64,000 nucleotides of DNA, from the NCBI GenBank assembly GCA_002269645.1, contig NIVC01001874.1, positions 1 through 64,000 on the forward strand, read 5' to 3'. Both the position numbers and the translations under genes were made by a program. This document shows positions 11,620 to 26,389 of the stretch, piece after piece; the first letter of the stretch is position 1; every line of letters starts with the position of its first letter. This DNA comes from Macrostomum lignano (lineage: Eukaryota). The notes under the pieces were generated by a model. It saw nothing but the letters and a program-made list of their open reading frames with translations. It made no database searches and was not told the DNA's origin.

Positions 11620-12928
11620 TAGTTGGAAAATTTGCTGGTAAAAGCTGGGATTTGTAAAATGATCCAATAATTTCTTCTCCATTCTCATCCTCAATAATGT
11701 AAGTTATGGGATTTGAGTAAACTATTTTCTTTATCCTAAACACTTCTCAAATTTTCCAATAACCTCTTCGACCCTTTTCAAAGTGCTCCTTGTATCTATA
11801 GATATGAACTTTGTCACCTACTTTGAAGTTTGGTTTCTCATTTGAATACTCGAAGGAAAGCTTTGGTACTCGCTCAGGATGTTTAGATGCTTCTGAAGGA
11901 GTTATCAGAATCTCAGAATGGATTGTGTTGTTGTATTTTTCAACAACAGCTGGCAATGTGTGGAGCCACTTCTGATTACCCTGTAGATCGAATTCAAACC
12001 AGAGTTTATTTGTGAGAGTACGATTGAACCTCTCAATCATTGCATTCTTAGACTCACCATAAATTGAGAACATCTTGTTAATATACTCCCCATTTTCATC
12101 TTTCTTTCTTATGTCGTCTTTTGAAAACGAGTATAGCTTGTACATTTGCTGATTATAAAACTCCTTGCCTTCATCTACACAAAGTCTCTCTGATCGTCTT
12201 CCTGATTCCTTAAATACTTTTTGGAAAGCTTCTGCAACTTCCGCTCCCGTCTTTGTTTTTAAAGGAACTGCCCAGGCGTAACGTGTAAAACCATCTATGA
12301 TAGTGAGAGCATATTTGTAACCTCTTTCGGGTGGTAGGATAATGATATCTGCATGCCAAATTGTGTCTTTTGCATAGTGAATCATTTTTCTAAACAGTCT
12401 TGGTTTTCTATATTCCCTATGCAATTTTACTGCATCTTCATAGCTAAGACCCTTTCCGTATATAGTTAGACAGTCTATACAATTGTTGGGGTTGTGAGTA
12501 AGAATTCCTAATCCAAATCGAACTTTAGCCTTGATAATACGCTTTACTAGATTTCGAATGAGTCTCTCCTTTACCGACAAGTCACTAGTTGGAATAGCAT
12601 CTAAATCAGCTATCATTTTTTCATCAGCAATGTGCTTCTTTGCTAAGGCTTCCTCTGGAGTTGAAGACGTCTTTTCAGCATCTCTATAGTTTTTGTCATG
12701 ATAGTAAGCAGTCCAATCAATTGGATTAATTGGTAGACTATCATACCGAGGCCAGTCTGTAATTGGATTGAGTCTCTTGTCTAAATTTGTACCTGGGCCA
12801 GTGAAAGAATACCCTGGAATATGAAATTCGCCAGGATATTTTCCAGTGGCGAAGATGGGTGGTAGTTTTGTTATAGCTGACTGAATATCCAATGCAGAAC
12901 CTAGAAATAATGGTTTACTGAAGGCCAT
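11620..12928 (-). CDS. Parvovirus-type phospholipase A2 domain fused in frame to retroviral-type (rve) integrase; premature TGA at 11747-11749
   Basis: PGYSFTGPGT...DWTAYYHDKNY (PLA2 Ca-loop and HD motif), then WHAD..IDGFTRYAWAVPLK..VDEGKEF..IERFNRTL (D,D,E). The typical C-terminus EVFRIKK..PITYIIEDENGEEIIGSFY continues past the stop. Confidence 0.92.
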
Positions 12929-12961
12929 TTTTATAAAAATAAATTTAAGTAATCTACAGAC

Positions 12962-13125
12962 TTAGGCTGCGTTAACTGCTGTAGCAATAGAGCCTGCTGC
13001 TGCACCTGCCTGTTCTATGAAAGGTAGATTTGTCTTTTACTAAGTTGGATATGGTGCTTATAGTATCAAAAAAGACCTTCTCCATTATACTCTATTCGCC
13101 TATTGTATAGTCTCTTATCTTGCAT
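12962..13125 (-). pseudogene. Degraded paralogue of the GEG/amphipathic-helix ORF
   Basis: Allowing frameshifts it reads MQDKRLYNRRIEYNGEG-LFDTISTISNLVK..AGAAAGSIATAVNAA. Confidence 0.45.
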
Positions 13126-13486
13126 GATTCTGTAACGTGGTGCGCTTCGTGTCTTTTTAGAAAGGGGGGTGAACACAATAGACTAGCATGAGACGCTCCT
13201 ATTGGTTGCCAAAACCAAAACTTTTTTGGCAGAAATTTTGGTCGCAAGATTTGGCAGAAATTTTGGCAGCCAATAGCAATGTTCAGTGCTGCGGTTATGT
13301 ATAGTTAGTTTGGTGAGTTCCTGCAAGAGCCTGTTTGACCAGACGCTTCACTCAGTGTGGGTTTCGCACGACGTTAAAGTTGAGTCATAATATAAAAATT
13401 GGTTTCGGGAGAATTTCTCCTGCTATTTGTTGCATAATTACTAAATAAATTTTTGGTTAAGTAAAATTCAACTGAGGGTCGCGGAC

Positions 13487-13672
13487 TTAAAGTCCGATGA
13501 CTAGCAAGGACATTGACTTCCTCACTGAGGCCACATGGTGACCTGCGAAATTGTATGATGGTATATGAAGTTCTCCTGGGTATTTGCCAGTGGAGAAAAT
13601 CGGAGGCAGTTTTGTTATAGCTGACCGAATGTCTAAAGCAGTTCCTAGAAATAGTGGTTTATTGAAGGCCAT
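13487..13672 (-). pseudogene. Truncated diverged duplicate of the PLA2-integrase 5' end
   Basis: MAFNKPLFLGTALDIRSAITKLPPIFSTGKYPGELHIPSY versus MAFSKPLFLGSALDIQSAITKLPPIFATGKYPGEFHIPGY at 12928. Confidence 0.9.
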
Positions 13673-13935
13673 TTTATGACGAAAAAAGTAAGCAAAATCA
13701 AATTTGATGACAGTTTCAAATTGTTTACACCTGAAATGGCATTGAGATGAACCAACGATTCCAAAATAACTATTTGGTTTTAGTGCTAGAATTGTGTAAA
13801 TGGCACTTTTTCAAAATTATTAAAAAACAAATCACTAAAATCACTGTCTTAAGACCATTTTCACATGTTTTTAGTCATTTTTCAGTGAATTTCATGGTAT
13901 GCTCTGCGCTTAAACCTACTTTTCCTATACTACTT

Positions 13936-14301
13936 TTATTCATCAATAGAAGCGCTTCCCATTTCGCTAGTGGCTGCTTCAATCGTGTCGTTCTCTTCTT
14001 CATCAAGCATGCTGTCATCCTCTCCTTCAAAGTGCAGTACGATGTCGAGTTCGAGGCGGCATGCGAAATTCTCATCTTCTGATGCTCTTTGTTCAATTGC
14101 CTTCTTGAACGTCAGAAGGGTCTCAAAGCAATATCCAGAAATTACCAGACTCGGGTACTTTGTTGTTAGCTTGTAGAATGTAAATAGTCGCTGGGCAAAC
14201 TTCACATCTATATCTAGCTTTCTCGCAACTCCTTCAATGCTCAGTCCGAGTTTTTCTTGCAACGCAGCAATTACTTCTGCTTAAGATTTTTAGTTTACCA
14301 T
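13936..14301 (-). pseudogene. Hypothetical Polinton protein with acidic tail; two in-frame TAA near the start
   Basis: ATG at 14301 is in frame with ORF 13936-14262 and reads MVN*KS*AEVIAALQEK. Confidence 0.45.
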
Positions 14302-14488
14302 TTCTATCCTAATAATATAAGGTGGGGGTGGAGAAAAAAAAGTCAGTTGGTTTGCTGACACCAATGAGGTAGGGCAGTTTTAACTTAGAATTTTTGCCAG
14401 TGTTGCGTTTGCATAAATATTTCTAGAAAAAATATGCAGACAAATCACAACCAATTTCAAAGCACTTGAAAAGAAACTACAGAGTACA

Positions 14489-15698
14489 ATGAAGAATATA
14501 AATTCAATACAAGGAGCCAACAAGCTCAAACAGGTAACTACTTTGTTCAAAGAGAGGTTTACTAACAATGAAATTGAATTCGATATGAAATGGAATTTGC
14601 TAGGGTTTAACGATGGAGTATATGATCTCGCTACAGGTGAGTTTCGCGAGTATAGATATGGCGATTACGTTACTAAATCGGTGGGATATAATTACTCGGA
14701 TGTATTTGAAGTGAGTGATTACGACTATGGCTTCATTGTTAATCTGCATAACCAAATTCATCCCGATCCAGAAAACAGAAAGAGTTGGGAATCCGTTATA
14801 GCCACAGCTCTAATGGGTAAGAATGTTGAAAACTTTATAATGTTTGATGGCGCCGGTGGAAATGGCAAGGGGATTGAGGACAACCTACTTCTTAGAACTC
14901 TAGGATCTGATTATGCAGCACCACTGAGTCCTGATGTTTTGAATTCACCAATAAGAATAGACAGGCCACAACCAGCCCTAGCACAAATTAATAAAAAGAG
15001 GTTGGTTATCAGTCAAGAAGTAAGTGGTGTATTGAACAATGCATCAATAAAATTACTAACTGGTGGAGGAGTTATTCAAGCTAGAACTTTATATTCAAGC
15101 AAGTGTAATGTTGTTTTACACGCAACCCTAATAGTCGAATGTAATAAAAAGCCTGACTTTAGACAAAATATTGGAGATGCAGAAAAAAGACGAATTATAA
15201 ATATTAATTACCCATGTAAATATACAACAGATACCGACATCATTGATCATGAGAAACACATTTATAAAGCCGATTCATATCTTAAAACCGAGGAATTTAA
15301 GAATAAATATAAGTTTGCTGAGATGAAACACCTACTAGAAATTATCAAACAAACAGGGGGTGAAATATATCTATCTCAAAATGTTATTGAAAACACTAAG
15401 GAATTCATACAGAATAGCAATTGGTTTGCTCACTTCTTTGAAGAGAATTATGAATTTTTAGAAACTGAGGAAAAAAACATTTATGCTTATTAGAGAAATT
15501 TACACTGCCGCAACAGAGAGTGAATACTATAGGACTCTAGCCCAACGCGAGAAACGTGAATTCCAACAACAATACATAACAGATTTCTTCAAGAATCACA
15601 ATGACTATTGTAAGTATTATAAGGATAGATATAGGCGTAGGATAGATGGTAAACAGCAAGAAACTAGAAATGTTCTGTTTTACTGTGTGAAAAAATAA
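14489..15698 (+). pseudogene. D5-like SF3 helicase (primase-helicase C-terminal part), 5'-truncated, frameshift near 15490
   Basis: LLGFNDGVYDL, Walker A GAGGNGKG, KRLVISQE, IKLLTGG..IQARTLY, CNKKP, RRI. Confidence 0.9.
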
Positions 15699-15710
15699 AC
15701 GAAGATGTTA

Positions 15711-16367
15711 TCAATGCGATTGAATTGGCTGATGAGGGATGGATCTTATAGGATCCAAATAATATCTTTTATCATCTAAAGGACTCATTGTTTGTTTCAT
15801 AAAATCACGAATATATATTTTATTTTTTTCAGATACAGTCATGCTTACTCTACCTCTTTGAATATCTTTGTAATCTGTCAATAGTATGTTTTTAAATGTT
15901 TCAAACTTTATATTTGTACTGCTTTTATCAACTCCCTTGATCTTAACACGCTCCCCTGAAACTGTAGTGAAAGCATACTCCTTTGACCGCAGGAATACAG
16001 CCTCGGAAATTATTGAGCCATTCATTTCATCTTTCAACTTTCCAATGACTTTCTTGTTCGTCTCGGAGTATAGTGGATGCTCTGTTGGATAATCCGATGT
16101 GTCTAAGTGTTCTTTAATTTTTTCAAGATCCTCATAAACATCCTGAGTAATCACTGAGAATATCAGAGAATCACAATCAGAATAGTGCAACTGACAGCTG
16201 TTCCAATTCTTCTCAATAACATTGTAATAGCAATCGTACATTAGCATTTTTGCATAATCCAGAATAGCCATTCCTAAATAAATTGGCTTGTCACACGCAA
16301 TTGTCTTTTTGTACATTTGGATACCAACTGCATCCTCACTAAACATAATGAAATCTTTGAAATTTGG
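15711..16367 (-). pseudogene. polB: C-terminal fragment of a second, divergent Polinton pPolB
   Basis: KPIYLGMAILDYAKMLMY, YSDCDS, IGKLKDE, FLRSKEY, KIKGV, SPLDDKRY parallel the 3107-4156 ORF but differ in sequence. Confidence 0.9.
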
Positions 16368-17028
16368 TACACCGTCCTCAATTCTGAGCAACTCGTAGTA
16401 ACCTAAGAGGTTCCTACAGTCGTGGGTCAACTCTAGTCGTTCTTGAAATGTCGGTTTAGGCGAGTCATTCTCAATTAAATTTCTAACAAAGCCTACCGCC
16501 GGATCGGCTAGCTGTGCTGCGATCAATTGGTCACGGCGAACTGGGCTACGGAGATAGTCACTGAGCAGGGAATTGCATGCAGGCGGATTTCCGGTTTTAG
16601 GCTCCTGTCCCTGTCTATTGTCTAGCCTACTGCTACTAAAGATCGGAGTATTGTGTCGGTTCGTGACAGTGTCTTGTGACGAACAGCATGACGGAAATCC
16701 ACTGCTCGAGCTACAGGTTTCAGCGAACGCGGAATTGCCTGAGCTGACAGTAAAAGCTGATGCTGGGTCTGTATTCACAGTTGCCCTACAGCTTAGCGAC
16801 CTGGCATGTGGGGACATCTCTTCCGGTTGGGGATCAGGGATCCTGGATAGAGCGTCAGCATTCACATGTTTAGGGCCACTCCTATGTTCTATCTCAAAAT
16901 CAAACTCGGAAAGTCTTTCGATCCAACGACCTAAAATGCCTGTCTGTTCGGTTTGGCGAAGCAACCAGGTTAGGGCATTGTGATCAGTGCGCACCTTAAA
17001 ATGTTTTCTTACGAGGTAAAATCTAAAG
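16368..17028 (-). mobile_element. Ty3/Gypsy LTR retrotransposon pol fragment (RNase H end and linker)
   Basis: FRFYLVRKHFKVRTDHNALTWL...RWIERLSEFDFEIEHRSGPKHVNADALSR; Q..DP and L.IEDGV linker motifs. Confidence 0.9.
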
Positions 17029-17480
17029 TACGAGGGTCAGTCAAAAAGTAATGATAATATTATTGTCACGAGCTTCAAGCTTCACGCACAAATCTACTTT
17101 TCTACATAATCCCCCCTCCAGGGTCAGACACTTCTCCATGTGGTGTCGCCATCTCTCCAGGCCATTCGTGTAGAAGGTAGGAGGCTGCGCAGCAAGCCAC
17201 TGTACGGTAGCCTTCTTGGCAGCCTCCTTGCTGTCATGTCGAACTCCCTTGATCGCCTCCTTCAGCTTTGGAAACAAAAAAAGTCTGAAGGAGCCAAATC
17301 AGGGCTGTACGGAGGACGCTGAAGTATTTCCCAGCGGAAATCTCGCAGAGCCTCCCGGCACAGTCAAGAAGTGTGAGCTGGTGCATTGTCGTGGTGGAAA
17401 AGCACTCCACGGTGCAGCTTGCCAGGACCTGCGGTCTATATGGAAAGTTTACAATACTTCCGATGCTGTTCGCATAGCCG
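17029..17480 (-). mobile_element. Mariner transposon 3' part with TIR and TA target
   Basis: TA-CGAGGGTCAGTCAAAAAG terminus at 17029; LFHHDNAPAH, PPYSPDLAPSDF, FPKLKE..W motifs. Confidence 0.9.
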
Positions 17481-17964
17481 GCGGTATGGCAAAGACTTCG
17501 GATCCGAGATACAACAGCACGAATAATCCTATGGAGGTGTCTCTTTCAGTTGACTCCAAGGGATCAATATATCGAAGCAATGAAGTTCCGACTGTTAGTG
17601 AACGGGCGTGTAACTATATGGGAATAAGCGACCTTCAAAACGTACGCCTGCAAGAGTGAGTTGCATTGTATCTATCTATGTATTGTATGGACAGACAGTA
17701 TACAATATTATTATATGTACAATAGACATAATAGTATAGAAAATGTGAATTGTATAGGCAATTATGTAGCACTGTAGTGTATGTTCGGCTTTTATAAATT
17801 ATTTTGGCTAGATTACATTCTATGCCTTCATCCCTTGATGTTGGCTAGACTAGCAGTCCATTATATTCATTCGTCTATTGATGTAGGTAGGATTCAAATG
17901 AACTTCAAAAAGCGTTTTGAGGTTTTAAAAGACTTTTCAAACTGTCCCCTCTTCATTGCCTTTT

Positions 17965-18170
17965 ATTAGAAATTTCGATTTCCTTGGAGCAATCGACACA
18001 CTGCAGCCGCCTGAGGAAGTCATGACGAAGGCTGGGAAGCGGATAAACGTAGCCAAAGTGATTATTTTTGACCAGTCCTGTCGTTCTGTCTCCTGCACGT
18101 TTTGGGGGTCTTCCTCCGATCAAGCTGTCAATTGGAGTGTCGGCGACATTTTGTTCTTAAAAAGCTGTGA
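17965..18170 (+). CDS. Isolated OB-fold exon-like segment (RPA1/MEIOB-like)
   Basis: FLGAI..L.PPEEVMTKAGKRINVAKVIIFDQS..SVSCTFWG pattern, preceded by a TTTTATTAG acceptor-like site. Confidence 0.55.
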
Positions 18171-18859
18171 CCCTGGAATCTACCATGCTCGCCAATCTTA
18201 GCATCATTTTACTGTGTCTGACATTTCTGACATTCTGACATGTTAATGTGTCAGACAGACACAAAAGAAATTGAATGTAATATTAATTAACATTTAGATA
18301 AATTCGAATTCCAGCCACAGCCAACAGATCGACCATTTATTATAAGCGTTACAACTAACCCAACATCTAATAATCATGGATAGCTAACTGGCGGCAACTT
18401 GACCAATTGGAACAAGTGAGTATATGCCTGTTTATAATAACAATTATAAAGAATCCATACTACCAAAAGAATCCAAAAGAATAATAACATACTACTAAAC
18501 ATCACGTTAATTTAAACCGCAACTCGAACAGCAGTATTTCAACACTCCCTGATTTAAGCTTGGGTGCTTTAATTCGGCTTTTTTATATAATTCATTTAGT
18601 TTACTTATTAATGGTCATCCGCGGAGTTTTTAGAAGTCTGCCTAACTTCTTTATTTTATCTATATACTTTATAGCGGCGTTAAGACTATTAATTTGTTGA
18701 TCCCTAGCCTAATTTTTGTGCGTTAAGAATAGCATTTGACGGCTAATCCTATATGCTTCAGCAATACTGTTTGGCATCTAATCCCATATACTTTTGGACT
18801 GATAAACTATAACACATTGTTCTACCATAGATATTTTATTTATTAAATCACAACTTAAG

Positions 18860-19240
18860 CAACAGTGTCAGTAGCAGCAGTGTTGACTGGTGATATGACC
18901 CCGATTGACTCTGGTGATGTGACCCCGTTGACTGGTGATGTGACCAAGCTGACTAGTGATGTGACCTGGGTGACTGGTGATGTGACCAACGCGACTGGTG
19001 ATGTGACCTGGTTGACTGGTGATGTGACCGTGTTGACTGGTGTTGTGACCGTGTTGACTAGTGATGTGACCATGTTGACTAGTGATGTGACCTGGTTGAC
19101 TGGTGATGTGACTCCGATCGAGTGGTGATGTTACCCGATTGGATGGTGTTGTGATCGCGAAGATTGGTGATGTGATCAAATGACTGCTGGTGTGACATAG
19201 TTGACTGGCGATGTGATCATGTTGACTGGTGATAGGACCT
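18860..19240 (+). repeat. 21-bp minisatellite (GTTGACTGGTGATGTGACCNT)n
   Basis: Directly visible tandem units; reverse complement of the 25370-26230 array. Confidence 0.95.
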
Positions 19241-19405
19241 TTTATCTCACCATGTTGTAGTTATATAGATTTAATATGTCTTTTTAACAATGTTGTTATA
19301 TAATTAATATTATACAGACCAACTACGGATGCGACCTGATGTAGAGCCCGGTCTGATGTTGTCAGTTTAACACGCGACAGAACGAGCGCCGCTCCAGAAA
19401 CTCGA

Positions 19406-22000: not shown

Positions 22001-22864
22001 CTAAACACAATGGTAGATTGTATAGTATGCAACTGAGTTGAATAATCGAACTCGAGTTCGATTATTCAACTTATTCTTCGTTGGCAGAGCAGGAAGACAG
22101 TAGTACTCCTTGCCGTCAGAATCCGTGTGCAATTCAAGCGAGTCCCTTTGTCTCAGGAACTTCAGATGCTCCTGGCCACGCTCTCCAAAGGAGTAAAGAA
22201 CATAGAACAGAAATTTAGCCTGCTCGATTTCAGCCGTAGTCCCTTCAAAGTAGCACCGCAACTTCTGCATGTCGCCTTCTTCAATTGGTTCATACTGCCT
22301 GGTGCAGCCACCATCTCGATGGAAATCACGAACCTTGACACGCAGCATCTCGTTGCAGGAATTGAATTCCTCACCACCGATTATATCGACAGGCAGCTTC
22401 AGAACCATGCGTAGGAAACGCTGAATTCCAGCCCGGATACAGATGAGTGAGGCCGGCGAGTAGAACGAGCCATCCTGTTTCTTCAGCTTGAAGTAGAAGT
22501 ACCGAAGATATTGGTTCAATGTAGGATTGTTGACATGCTGAATGTTGCGCAGATTCTCCCCTTCCAGGAAGTCTCGAAAACGTTGGCCATGCTGGTACAT
22601 CTGCTTCCGAGTATCCTCAGGCAGACTCTCGATCTCGATTCTGTCCATCTCGGAAACGTCTATCTTTTCATCTCCATCGATCATTGGCAGCCCAGTATCA
22701 GCTGGACCATTTTGGACATACTTCAGGAACGCATCGAAATCTTCGTCGTGCCGATCAACGGCAGAGGATTCCGAGAGGAAGTTCAGTTCATCCTGCGTGA
22801 TGTTGCCGAGGTCCTCACACGGGAGGTTACCCCAATTAATATAATGTATTATCGGGTCGCTCAT
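22001..22864 (-). mobile_element. Crypton-like tyrosine recombinase (DUF3504/KCTD1-ZMYM-type) ORF, C-terminally truncated
   Basis: LNQYLRYFYFKLKKQDGSFYSPASLICIRAGIQRFL, IIGGEEF, EEGDMQKL, FGERGQEH; the later HxxR/Y catalytic region is absent. Confidence 0.8.
22036..22071. repeat. Perfect 36-bp palindrome
   Basis: AGTTGAATAATCGAACTC-GAGTTCGATTATTCAACT. Confidence 0.97.
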
Positions 22865-24086
22865 GATGGACAGAAAACTCTTGAATCAACAGGTTTGGAC
22901 AGACTACTTACTGCCTGGGAATCCCTCACACAAACCCCTTCACCCCCACTGAAAGTTTTGCCATAGACATTTCAACCCTCCATTCAATCAATAGGATTGT
23001 CATTGCCATGAACTCTCCACGCCTTTTGGCTTTCGTGCCATAGACGTTTGTGCCTCCTCCTTTTGGGCCACTTCGATTCGTGCCATAGATATTTCCTGCA
23101 ATGAAGTTAACTGGAAGAGGAACTCCAGGCAACGCGCCGCTCGTGGCTTTGGCCGTTGCCTGGAGTTCTCTCTTCCAGTTAACCCCCCATTATTCCACAC
23201 TTTTGCGGCCATTATTCCACACTTTTGTCGCTGTCATTATTCCACACTTTTTATCATGCTTCAATTGGCTGTTTTAAGAGCTGTTTTACCCATAGACGAC
23301 TGAGCTGTGTGGCTTAGTTTGACCATAGACAACACTGATGAGTGCTGATTTTGCTTGCGTCTTGCAAGAAATCAGGAAAGCGAGTAATGCGAGAAAAAGC
23401 TATTTATCTTGTCAAACAACTAATGGCTGGTGCATCTCGTCAAACAGCAGCGCTTATTAATTGGAAAAAACTTCCTGCTGACGACTGAGCGAACCGTGCG
23501 GCGCTACCTAGGAAGAAAACGCGACCATGCAGTCTTCAACGCCTCGACGGCTTTAAGCGATGCCTCAAATGGCCAATCGATTCAGTCGAGCAGCCGACAG
23601 TCCCAAAGAATCCCAGCTTGGATACTGCGGTACCAAAGAAGCTCATCAGACGAAGCTCATGAGTCGCAAGCCAACTTAACCAAGACGTGCATCTTTCAAA
23701 TGGTAAGTTCGGGAACTATACTTGAGCACCTGTATTTTTCTTTCATAGAAAACATTCAACATAGACCAACTCCTTTTGCAGTGCCAAATTATCAGGCTAA
23801 AGTGTCGATCGTCTTTGGAAACTGCGGCTTTGAGTACTGCATGTTTCACTTTGGGTAACAAATTGATTTTTACATAGTCAAATTTCGACTACAAACTGAT
23901 AAACTGCACTAGCTGTGACATTTATTATGAACTCTTTCGTGTAGTTGGTACTTTAGTTTTAATGATTTTTCCTTTTTGTTCATTTACTTCTTGTTGTTCT
24001 GTGTTTACTAACAAAAATACTGAGCGATGGATTTTTTCAATCTAAACGTCTATGGTACACATCAAAACTGTGGAATAATGTAGGAT

Positions 24087-24174: not shown

Positions 24175-24340
24175 GTTGCATTGTATTACGTTGGCTTAAT
24201 ACTTTAGATGGCGCGTTAGATGCACGCTCAGTTAATTTGTCTTAACCATAGACAAAAATGCGTGAAAGGCACGCAAGTTGATTGAGTGTTGCGAAGAAGG
24301 GAATAAGAAGCTGTTAAATTAAAATCACTTGTGAGAGAAT

Positions 24341-24817
24341 ATGGCTGAGCCACCAACTAAAGTCAGACTTCTGAATCTGAGCAAATTTCCGAACGAAATG
24401 ATTTCCGGCTTGTCCACCAATGAGATTGACGACATTCTGAACGAGCCTGATAATCTACCGGAGTCGGCAATTGATCGAGAAGAGGAGGATCTTCTGGAGG
24501 CACTTTTCAAGAAGATACCTGACGAAGAAGCTGAACTACTTGAATTGGAACAGCTCGTTTCCGAAATCGAGGACACCGCTGCTAGTAAAAGTGTGACAAA
24601 GGCTACCGAATATTATGTCGGTAAGTTGCAGAGCTTCATGGAGAACCATCCGTCAGTTGAGCGTGATTTGGCGACTTCTACACCGCGCGAGATCGACAGT
24701 CTATTGCGATACTTCTATGGCTCACTTCGCAAGAGGAATGGCGAATACTTTGCTCCAGCCACGTTGATTTGTATCCACATTTGTACTCACTTTCCGTGCA
24801 TTACACGCACGCGTTAG
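24341..24817 (+). mobile_element. Second Crypton-like recombinase N-terminal fragment, divergent from the first
   Basis: IDSLLRYFYGSLRKRNGEYFAPATLICI is homologous to the 22001-22864 ORF; flanked by a 16-bp inverted repeat at 24211-24226 and 24886-24901. Confidence 0.8.
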
Positions 24818-25369
24818 ACGCACGCTTGTTGCTTTTACTCAGATAGAAAATTGCCATAGACACCTACATTAGACGCACAGTAAATCGTGCATCTAACGCG
24901 CGCCAGCGTGATACAATGGCCAAAATATTTTCTTATTGCGTCTGGGTAAAAGTATAATTACAATGAATTGACCGCTTTGAAACAAAGTCAGCCAACCAAC
25001 TATGGATCTATTAATATGTGCAAACCATGAGCAAAGTATAATCGCATAAATAAATAATATATATATGTACAAACGATTTTAAAATGCAGAAGCAACATAT
25101 AAAACATTGTGATCCTTCTCGACTTACTAATGAATCTATATCTGTCAGTTGGTAATTACGAGTATCTCAAGCAATTTTCCAATTTTAACAGCCTCCTGTC
25201 AAGACATGCCACAGCACTTATTATTAGGGTGAAATTTTAATACAGTTCCTCATTTGAATGTGAATTTGGATATCACTCAGTAGTTCGTTCATTTACACTC
25301 GCTCAAATGTCTGGGTTTCTCTTGTCTATAGTATCTACGAGTATTCTCACATCGATCTCACATCGTTAC

Positions 25370-26230
25370 ATCACCAGTCACCCAGGTCACATCACCAGTC
25401 AAACACGGTCACATCACCAGTCACCATGGTCACATCACCAGTCCACAGGGTCACATCACCAGTCAGCATGGTCACATCACCAGTCATCATGGTCACATCA
25501 CCAGTCAGCATGGTCACATCACCAGTCATCATGGTCACATCACCAGTCAGCATGGTCACATCACCAGTCAGCATGGTCACATCACCAGTCAGCATGGTCA
25601 CATCACCAGTCATCATGGCCACATCACCAGTCCATATGGTCACATCAACAGTCAACATTGTCACATCACCAATCATCGTGGTCACATCACCAATCAACAT
25701 AGTCACATCACCAGCCCATAAGGTCACATCACCAGGCAATATGGTCACATCACCAATCAACCAGGTCACATCACCAGTCAACACGGTCACATCACCAGTC
25801 AACACGGTCACATCACAAGTCAACACGGTCATATCACCAGTCAACACCGTCACATCACCAGTCAACATGGTAACAACACCAGCCAGTCGGGTCACATCAC
25901 TAGTCAACACGGTCACATCACCAGTCCATAAGGTCACAACACTAGCCAACATGGTCACATCACCAGTCAACCTGGTCACATCACCAGCCAACCTGCAGGT
26001 CACACCACCAGCCCATAAGGTCACATCACCAGTCAACCTGGTCACAACACCAATCAACAAGGTCACATCACCAGTCAACACGGTCACATCACCAGTCAAC
26101 ACGGTCATATCACCAGTCAACACGGTCACAACACCAGTCAACATGGTAACAACACCAGCCAGTCGGGTCACATCACCAGCCCATACGGTCACATCACCAA
26201 TCAACAAGGTCACATCACCAGTCACTATGG
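25370..26230 (-). repeat. 21-bp minisatellite, inverted copy of the 18860-19240 array
   Basis: GGTCACATCACCAGTCAACAC units. Confidence 0.95.
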
Positions 26231-26389
26231 ACAATTTTGAAATGACATAGAATGAAGAAGAAAAATGTGAAAGCGCCAATTTTAATTATTTCAATCAACA
26301 AATGAATGAATCCAATGCACATCAATCAATTATAAATCAACACGGCGCTCTATATTCCAGTTCAATAACAAGATCAATCACAGTTTATC

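Follow-up and report, generated by a model that had tools for sequence, protein, structure and literature searches.

A conserved phospholipase A2-integrase fusion in Polintons, with a probable -1 frameshift form among relatives of a decayed Macrostomum lignano copy

Few endogenous DNA viruses are as common as the Polintons of animals, yet according to a preprint no virion of theirs has been seen (bioRxiv 10.64898/2026.06.19.733378). For the lipases of Polintons, a breach of the endosome has been proposed (PMC4642659). In the same source, the phospholipase A2 (PLA2) of the parvovirus VP1-unique region is tethered to the capsid protein, whereas the PLA2 described here, which shares its Pfam family, GPG loop and H-D motif, is tethered to an integrase. 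Another parvovirus-type PLA2 is the PLA2X of the Alpha (Mayetiola-class) adintoviruses, which belongs to the virion module and has an identical G-x-G end motif (Starrett et al. 2021, PMC8502044). In PLA2X the C-terminal domain is pX-like and an integrase is absent; the present protein, in which an integrase follows the PLA2, is not a PLA2X in this sense. The available passages of that paper mention neither fusion nor cleavage.

The closest described proteins are those labelled ‘PLA2-Integrase’ for Adinto15303 and Adinto6405 (Buck et al. 2024, PMC11071296, supplement file 2). They show the order also found here: within a single frame, PLA2 is followed by a K-x-K-x-G-x-G motif and then by an integrase start of the ELH type, whereas the present protein has in addition a 13-residue insert and a second G-x-G. 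In that supplement the fusion stands as a bare label, and the available main-text passages do not discuss it. The remarks on -1 frameshifting in these passages concern Penton and Hexon-Adenain only, and the available supplement text mentions neither slippery sites nor slippage. The same file contains the labels PLA2X-Adenain, Adenain-PLA2 and Adintoc3-PLA2X, in which PLA2 is joined to several partners.

Two further systems are relevant. Mavirus virions contain an rve integrase and a predicted hydrolase that is processed near GK↓G (the arrow marks the cut), and the mavirus cysteine protease cuts at GG↓X and GX↓G, for example GY↓G (Born et al. 2018, PMC6048507). In contrast to the fusion, mavirus has one gene for the integrase (MV02) and another for the hydrolase (MV13), whose fold is of the alpha/beta type and not that of a PLA2. 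Retroviral Gag/Gag-Pol and astroviruses use -1 frameshifting at an X_XXY_YYZ heptamer followed by a 6-9-base spacer and a stimulatory structure, and one known -1 signal consists of A_AAA_AAC, such a spacer and either a stem or a pseudoknot (PMC3835772). Relatives of the present element resemble these systems in heptamer, spacer and structure, and in having an enzyme as an extension of a putative structural protein. Unlike Gag/Gag-Pol, they are DNA virus-like elements with a lipase-type core protein upstream and the integrase alone downstream, and the likeness concerns relatives only, not the copy described next.

The window, i.e. the whole stretch analysed, comprises 64,000 nucleotides of a repeat-rich genome, that of Macrostomum lignano (contig NIVC01001874.1). 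Its first 15.5 kb are occupied by a decayed element with a protein-primed polymerase, a D,D,E rve integrase and a double jelly-roll capsid protein, which identify it as a Polinton/Maverick (Table 1). The polymerase, ATPase, penton and integrase genes are broken. No inverted repeat of positions 1-18500 was found within the window, and the element extends to the left window edge. The adintovirus definition of Buck et al. 2024 (PMC11071296) includes a C-terminal chromodomain of the integrase; Pfam detected none in the window integrase or in the relatives P0002, P0005 and P0340, and found one in L047, L087 and L004, in two of the three cases below the cut-off. The protease name in Table 1 is one that we take from the motif pattern, the gene having been compared by eye with genes of the same type in L004, L047, L051 and L087; it has His-His where these four relatives have His-Trp.

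Table 1. Features of the Polinton/Maverick element and its PLA2-integrase gene in the window
Feature	Position	Strand	Evidence or remark
PLA2-integrase fusion ORF	11747..12928	-	393 codons, closed early by in-frame stop
Parvovirus-type PLA2 domain (aa 30-141)	12506..12841	-	GPGT loop aa 44-47, H77-D78, Y81, D102
First G-x-G site FGLG (G139-L-G141)	12506..12514	-	Closes K-x-K-x-G-x-G motif; candidate maturation-protease site
Second G-x-G site YGKG (G158, G160)	12449..12457	-	Confined to closest relatives
rve integrase	11750..12433	-	LAxELH-type start; D194, D252, E299
Insert of ~13 residues, second Asp to Glu	12080..12127	-	Approximate limits; D-to-E spacing 46
Premature in-frame TGA, apparently private to window copy	11747..11749	-	Translation, relatives, sequencing-run contigs
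Remaining integrase C-terminal part, 3' of stop	11618..11746	-	42 codons plus next stop; same frame to 11621; no Pfam match
Small basic ORF, putative core protein	11194..11613	-	Two G-x-G-hydrophobic sites; role inferred
Small basic ORF piece weakly resembling pX-type C-terminal half of PLA2X	10733..11074	-	Two G-x-G-hydrophobic sites; no in-frame start codon
Major capsid protein, double jelly roll	9357..10709	-	PF21738 E 4.2e-15
A32-like packaging ATPase, shortened by stop	8754..9335	-	Pox_A32 E 4.4e-4, below cut-off; three-frame reading
Conserved ORF adjoining ATPase	7829..8557	-	One G-x-G-hydrophobic site
Penton (minor capsid protein), split over two frames	7047..7678	-	C-terminus resembles labelled Adinto6405 Penton by eye; no Pfam match
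Adenain-like cysteine protease	6606..7037	-	His, Asp, Gln, Cys motifs; no Pfam match
Double F5/8 type C (discoidin) protein, possibly for attachment	5231..6277	-	PF00754 E 2.8e-10, 2 stretches
Protein-primed family B DNA polymerase, at least 4 pieces	140..4156	+	DNA_pol_B_2 E 3.6e-12 and Endonuclease_7 on 1879-2751
Second PLA2 gene start, stub	13559..13675	-	84% identical to 12815-12931

The frame that starts with the ATG at 12928 on the minus strand contains both a Phospholip_A2_4 and an rve domain with zero stops between them, as judged by Pfam and translation. We interpret it as an integrase gene from a lineage of Polintons/Mavericks (adintoviruses) in which the integrase N-terminus is joined to the PLA2 domain that in other cases belongs to the stand-alone PLA2X gene. 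The parvovirus-type PLA2 with its GPGT loop and HD motif, which the initial annotation had proposed from the letters alone, was borne out by a match to PF08398 at aa 34-110 (E 1.9e-8) with 34.9 bits against a curated cut-off of 23.9; the rve match covers aa 186-263 (E 3.7e-10). The same annotation had treated 11620-12928 as one ORF with an intact D,D,E integrase. This view required correction: the three catalytic acidic residues are present, but the in-frame TGA at 11747-11749 closes the frame after 393 codons and cuts off the C-terminal part of the integrase. The 42 codons past the TGA match 64 of 88 fused relatives at E<1e-3, and at least 30 residues extend beyond the ORF end in 67 of the 71 relatives aligned that far. 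Because relatives match and extend through them, these codons are part of the integrase. The TGA codon was absent from every covering contig of sequencing runs X1, X2, X4 and X8 (4, 3, 1 and 1 contigs; 4 of 24 runs), and none of the indels listed for the contigs of the four runs (12 of 17) fell within the ORF. Judged from these contigs, the TGA is either damage private to the window copy or an assembly error. The catalytic residues of both domains are intact at the sequence level. In contigs of all four runs position 13519 was joined to 12804, as if other copies ran from a start of the stub type directly into the PLA2 gene.

An AlphaFold model of the fusion protein (pTM 0.56) shows two confident domains. 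Its pLDDT is about 90 or more at aa 31-130, i.e. in the PLA2 part, and below 50 in the linker at aa 141-157, and according to this prediction PLA2 and integrase fold separately around a variable low-confidence linker. The integrase model aligned with foamy virus integrase with a Z of 19.1 (rmsd 2.3, 163 residues aligned), and the N-terminal domain model aligned with rice PLA2 (2wg7) with a middling Z of 7.1 (rmsd 4.4, 101 aligned). A Foldseek search with the whole fusion model returned integrases only, the sequence of the PLA2 part had no significant match in the PDB, and the PLA2 domain predicted alone without alignment gave a poor model (pLDDT 51).

We found PLA2 and integrase together in 74 of 120 homologues among the matches listed in a first search; with a second search added, the figure was 100 of 265. 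The fusion is thus real and widespread, and it already bears a label in print (PMC11071296), so that its novelty is lowered on a ground that the initial annotation had itself named. An alignment of 63 fused proteins drawn from these homologues, which are 31-80% identical to the window protein, revealed that H77, D78, Y81 and D102 of the PLA2 are kept in 62, 61, 62 and 63 rows, respectively, and that D194, D252 and E299 of the integrase are invariant (63/63). Likewise, the extra insert reported ahead of the catalytic Glu was found again: the spacing from the second Asp to the Glu is 46 residues in 17 of the 63 relatives, as in the window, versus 33 in 27 of them, and sequence comparison thus makes the insert a subfamily trait. 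Since both sets of catalytic residues are kept across relatives of such different identity, the fusion is not accidental, and these alignments make it almost certain that it is conserved and under selection.

The opposite explanation is that the fusion in the window is an accident of decay, and that the out-of-frame junctions described below for relatives represent indels or assembly errors in A-runs. The decayed state of the element with its four broken genes would be in line with this idea. It is contradicted by the 100 fused homologues and by the close relatives P0002, P0003 and P0340, in which the junction is open; the stop between the domains in sibling copies that had been named beforehand as the mark of an accidental fusion was not encountered in these three. 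An accidental origin of the in-frame fusion is refuted by its wide conservation.

Among 99 loci chosen by likeness to a fused query, some of them near-duplicates, PLA2 and integrase share one ORF in 53, lie in separate ORFs in 29, and no PLA2 is present in the available DNA in 17. The long loci of this set are Polintons and contain genes for capsid, ATPase and polymerase. Integrase-only matches dominate the broader homologue search; most Polinton integrases stand alone, so that the life cycle does not depend on a fusion. In a quick tree of 76 integrase rows, all 61 linked rows plus 2 long-branch stand-alone rows lie on one side of a branch with a support of 94. Scanning viral contigs with single proteins gave no usable relative, and a scan of prokaryote genomes gave 3 matches, all of them to the zinc-ribbon part only. 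A zinc-ribbon domain, DUF5679, forms the N-terminus of the PLA2 in the frameshift clade described below (L087 7678-7800), whereas in L001, L050, L051 and L056 a similar small gene lies by itself immediately upstream of the in-frame fusion (L050 5943-6209; L051 5165-5407).

As for the pX part of PLA2X, a pX domain is found on a separate gene in L087 (E 1.4e-6) and L013 (E 0.0048). In the window, the piece at 10733..11074 shows a weak resemblance to the PLA2X of L004 (31% over 61 aa, pairwise E 0.011), and Pfam gave no Adeno_PX match in the window ORFs, including this piece and the fusion ORF. From these comparisons PLA2X appears to have been split, its PLA2 having moved to the N-terminus of the integrase.

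The linker between the domains varies from 3 to 73 residues across the 63 fused relatives, and its only constant is the motif K-x-K-x-G-x-G directly behind the PLA2. G139 of this motif is present in 63/63 and G141 in 57/63, and position P4 is K or R in 57/63. The initial annotation had pointed to two G-x-G sites, FGLG and YGKG. Both are present in the window protein, but YGKG is not conserved: a second G-x-G in the linker occurs in just 8 of the 63 relatives, and YGKG was therefore rejected as a cleavage site of the family. The adenovirus protease has the consensus (M/I/L)-x-G-G↓x or (M/I/L)-x-G-x↓G. Within the window this consensus is matched by IYGKG and not by RFGLG, and 6 of the 63 relatives have it in the region between the domains. 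The mavirus rule GX↓G is looser, and the first site conforms to it in 57 of 63.

Sites of the form G-x-G-hydrophobic, a motif defined after reading the window, were seen 7 times versus 0.7 expected in 4 putative core proteins of the window, and once versus 1.2 expected in its 10 other proteins. In six other loci, whose proteins were classed as core or other after the per-ORF counts had been seen, the core proteins contained 42 such sites versus 7.4 expected (20 of 21 proteins) and the non-core proteins 4 versus 6.8 expected (4 of 31 proteins). Because motif and classes were chosen after looking, the P values of this enrichment are optimistic. The enrichment in putative core proteins fits cleavage by a protease. 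The first G-x-G also terminates the stand-alone PLA2X, as seen in L004 and in the published labels, and it did therefore not arise for the fusion. It predates the fusion and may have been reused for it, or its conservation may have nothing to do with the integrase.

These data also bear on the view that the packaged fusion is never cut, in which case PLA2-integrase would work whole and bound to the genome, and the G-x-G would be the conserved end of a PLA2 helix. Such a role would agree with the K or R at P4, which differs from the M/I/L of adenovirus, with a Pfam PLA2 model that extends into the last helix (P0005, profile 3-80 of 80), with linkers as short as 3 residues, and with the fact that the motif closes PLA2X as well. 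However, G-x-G-hydrophobic sites recur in putative core proteins that are unrelated to each other but not in enzymes or proteins of the shell, the related protease of mavirus cuts at GX↓G with no P4 rule stated in the available text (PMC6048507), and the linker is predicted to be unstructured. We therefore regard an uncut fusion as unlikely, and the pattern of sites slightly favours cleavage at the first G-x-G.

Closer examination of the relatives revealed that the two domains are not always joined in frame. We defined a junction as a complete PLA2 end and an integrase start within 400 bases; the 65 junctions found were in frame in 54 cases, in the -1 frame in 9 and in the +1 frame in 2. The heptamer A_AAA_AAC is present in the PLA2 frame of 6/9 of the -1 junctions, compared with 2/54 of the in-frame and 0/2 of the +1 junctions. 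For RNA structure, an identical stretch of 100 bases was folded at every junction with 40 shuffles each, and a stem with z<-3 was detected in 6/9 of the -1 junctions and in 0/54 and 0/2 of the others, respectively; the stem of L075 and L089 was missed with an 80-base and found with a 100-base folding window. In the six stem-bearing -1 junctions the stem begins 7 bases past the heptamer. It is paired at 57 of 60 positions, with G-U as a substitute at one position, and pairs are swapped at 3 of 10 positions between two clades. Heptamer, spacer, stem and a downstream ORF in the -1 frame coincide in five of the nine -1 junctions (L073, L076, L084, L087 and L089), whereas in L075 the stem is present and the heptamer is changed. 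A broken copy outside the 65 counted junctions, L088 (1619-1720), also has the heptamer, the 7-base spacer and the stem.

The downstream frame appears to lack a start of its own. No Met precedes the ELH motif in any of the six stem-bearing -1 loci, and a Met before ELH is absent in 7 of the 9 -1 integrase frames with a complete start, broken copies of the L013 and L071 type aside. The integrases of L073, L076, L084 and L087 are 72-80% identical, and their third-position differences amount to 0.36-0.42 versus 0.11-0.16. This large excess of third-position change indicates selection on the out-of-frame integrase. The two frameshift clades are 52-56% identical in the integrase. In protein sequences, the Lys-Asn pair encoded by AAA AAC stands directly behind the G-x-G in 107 of 108 L087-type PLA2 proteins (shuffle mean 51, maximum 72) and in 115 of 116 L089-type PLA2 proteins (shuffle mean 73, maximum 88), a tally made on protein rows only, among close kin from length-limited searches, with 12 and 4 of 120 motif-less rows excluded. 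The tail continues into an integrase in 1/108 and 0/116 of these proteins, respectively. The protein uAdinto13024_PLA2, labelled as PLA2 only in the available supplement file 2 of PMC11071296, has a Lys-Asn tail of the frameshift class.

For the -1 junctions, the explanation by indels or assembly errors has some arguments on its side. Five of the 11 out-of-frame junctions have no stem, and deletion of a single A within a Lys-Lys run would yield an identical heptamer. Plain indels do occur at the junction because stemless out-of-frame junctions, namely three in the -1 frame (L010, L013 and L077) and both in the +1 frame, sit in A-runs. We accordingly rejected a frameshift reading for L010, L013, L077, L079 and L086, which have no stem, and read them as indels. 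Against a general explanation of this kind stand the restriction of the stem to -1 junctions, its covariation, and the near absence of PLA2 tails that continue into integrase in the two frameshift clades. Taken together with the conservation of the in-frame form, this makes decay or error a highly improbable source of the fusion and its -1 variants. The sequence data instead make it very likely that relatives use a programmed -1 frameshift, which would yield both PLA2 and PLA2-integrase.

The junction in the window is in frame and has neither a slippery site nor a stem (z -0.6), and the window element is by its sequence the always-fused, in-frame form. When DNA was scanned for the combined pattern of heptamer and stem arm, 121 viral stretches matched; 0/121 had a PLA2 or integrase, and they were taken as chance matches. 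The in-frame fusions of L064 and L082 lie in the clade of the frameshift loci and have A_AAA_AAC in frame and no stem; they may be relics of a lost frameshift. In L081, one of the 54 in-frame junctions, PLA2 and integrase are split by a single TGA followed by C at about 566-570, which could represent decay or a read-through as a third route to the fusion.

In the quick, unrooted integrase tree of 76 rows, the six frameshift loci fall into two clades that are mixed with in-frame forms. An AU test on 26 rows under a simple model rejected monophyly of these six loci (p 4.6e-7), the tested group having been fixed before the 26-row tree but after the 76-row tree. Loss of an old frameshift on several occasions and exchange of junctions would both fit the unrooted trees. 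In the most far-reaching reading given below, the presence of heptamer, spacer and stem in two non-sister integrase clades would make the frameshift old and the in-frame fusions repeated losses.

We propose the following mechanism. The PLA2 part would be a protein of the virion core that carries the integrase into the particle. There, the protease of the element would cut at G-x↓G, freeing the PLA2 and the integrase; the freed PLA2 would breach the endosome, and the freed integrase, which would then start like stand-alone integrases, would insert the incoming genome. In the two clades of relatives, -1 frameshifting would give much PLA2 and little PLA2-integrase, as in Gag/Gag-Pol, whereas in the lineage of the window PLA2 and integrase would be made one to one, in frame. 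In Gag/Gag-Pol, frameshifting holds the enzyme to a fraction of the structural protein and loads it into the particle. By analogy with mavirus, the fusion is best understood as a polyprotein that would be packaged and then cut by the protease, as the initial annotation had proposed. Packaging is, on these analogies, the likely purpose of the fusion, and the whole chain of packaging, protease release, entry through PLA2 and integration appears moderately likely.

Alternatively, the link could serve to couple expression only: PLA2 and integrase would share a start, fusion or frameshift would set the dose of integrase, and PLA2 would be no packaging carrier. Most Polintons have a separate integrase, mavirus packages an unfused one (PMC6048507), and in-frame and -1 forms are intermixed on the integrase tree, all of which would be compatible with this. 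However, the link is kept across integrases of about 50% identity in two modes of expression, which is easier to understand if the joined product matters, and the G-x-G precedes the integrase in both modes. Mere coupling of expression is therefore quite unlikely, somewhat more so than an uncut fusion. In its most far-reaching form, the packaging proposal would state that a large branch of Polintons has independently reached the Gag/Gag-Pol solution: the integrase would be made only as an extension of PLA2, by -1 frameshift or in frame, loaded at a set ratio and freed at G-x↓G, with an old frameshift and with the in-frame fusions, including that of the window, as repeated losses. We consider the chances of this extended version to be even.

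A frameshift at the PLA2-integrase junction was not found in print, and paywalled papers or Repbase reports may hold the fusion or the frameshift. The available passages of PMC3671162, PMC4642659, PMC5803895, PMC12220804, PMC11296320, PMC6048507 and PMC3835772, and of bioRxiv 10.64898/2026.06.19.733378 and 10.64898/2026.10.13.758929, contain no description of the fusion. A conserved PLA2-integrase link that is apparently made in two ways offers a concrete route for packaging of the integrase, and the frameshift form in relatives provides a testable, sequence-based account of how Polintons may achieve this. Lineages that tune the ratio of PLA2 to integrase would be indirect evidence that particles are built. 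For annotation, it follows that hundreds of PLA2 genes with a short basic tail and of integrase genes without a start are probably called separate or broken.

Several further features of the window were recorded. A D5-like primase-helicase ORF at 14417-15493 on the plus strand (D5_N E 2.2e-11) lies beside the element and could be part of it or of another element nested there. At 15711-17036 on the minus strand, one frame contains an RNase H piece of an LTR retrotransposon (E 1.7e-8) and the apparent C-terminal part of a second Polinton polymerase. The ORF at 4608-5297 (minus strand) has a weak SLATT_1 match (E 0.025); small membrane genes of similar look adjoin the protease gene in L001, L050, L051 and L087. 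Two related ORFs on the minus strand, 22001-22885 and 24335-24817, of which the first matches QRICH1 with E 0.0015, resemble remnants of Crypton-type tyrosine recombinases. Lastly, an identical 21-base unit is arrayed in opposite orientation at 18888-19260 and 25297-26244, and many more tandem arrays of 15-31 bases lie between 39000 and 62700.
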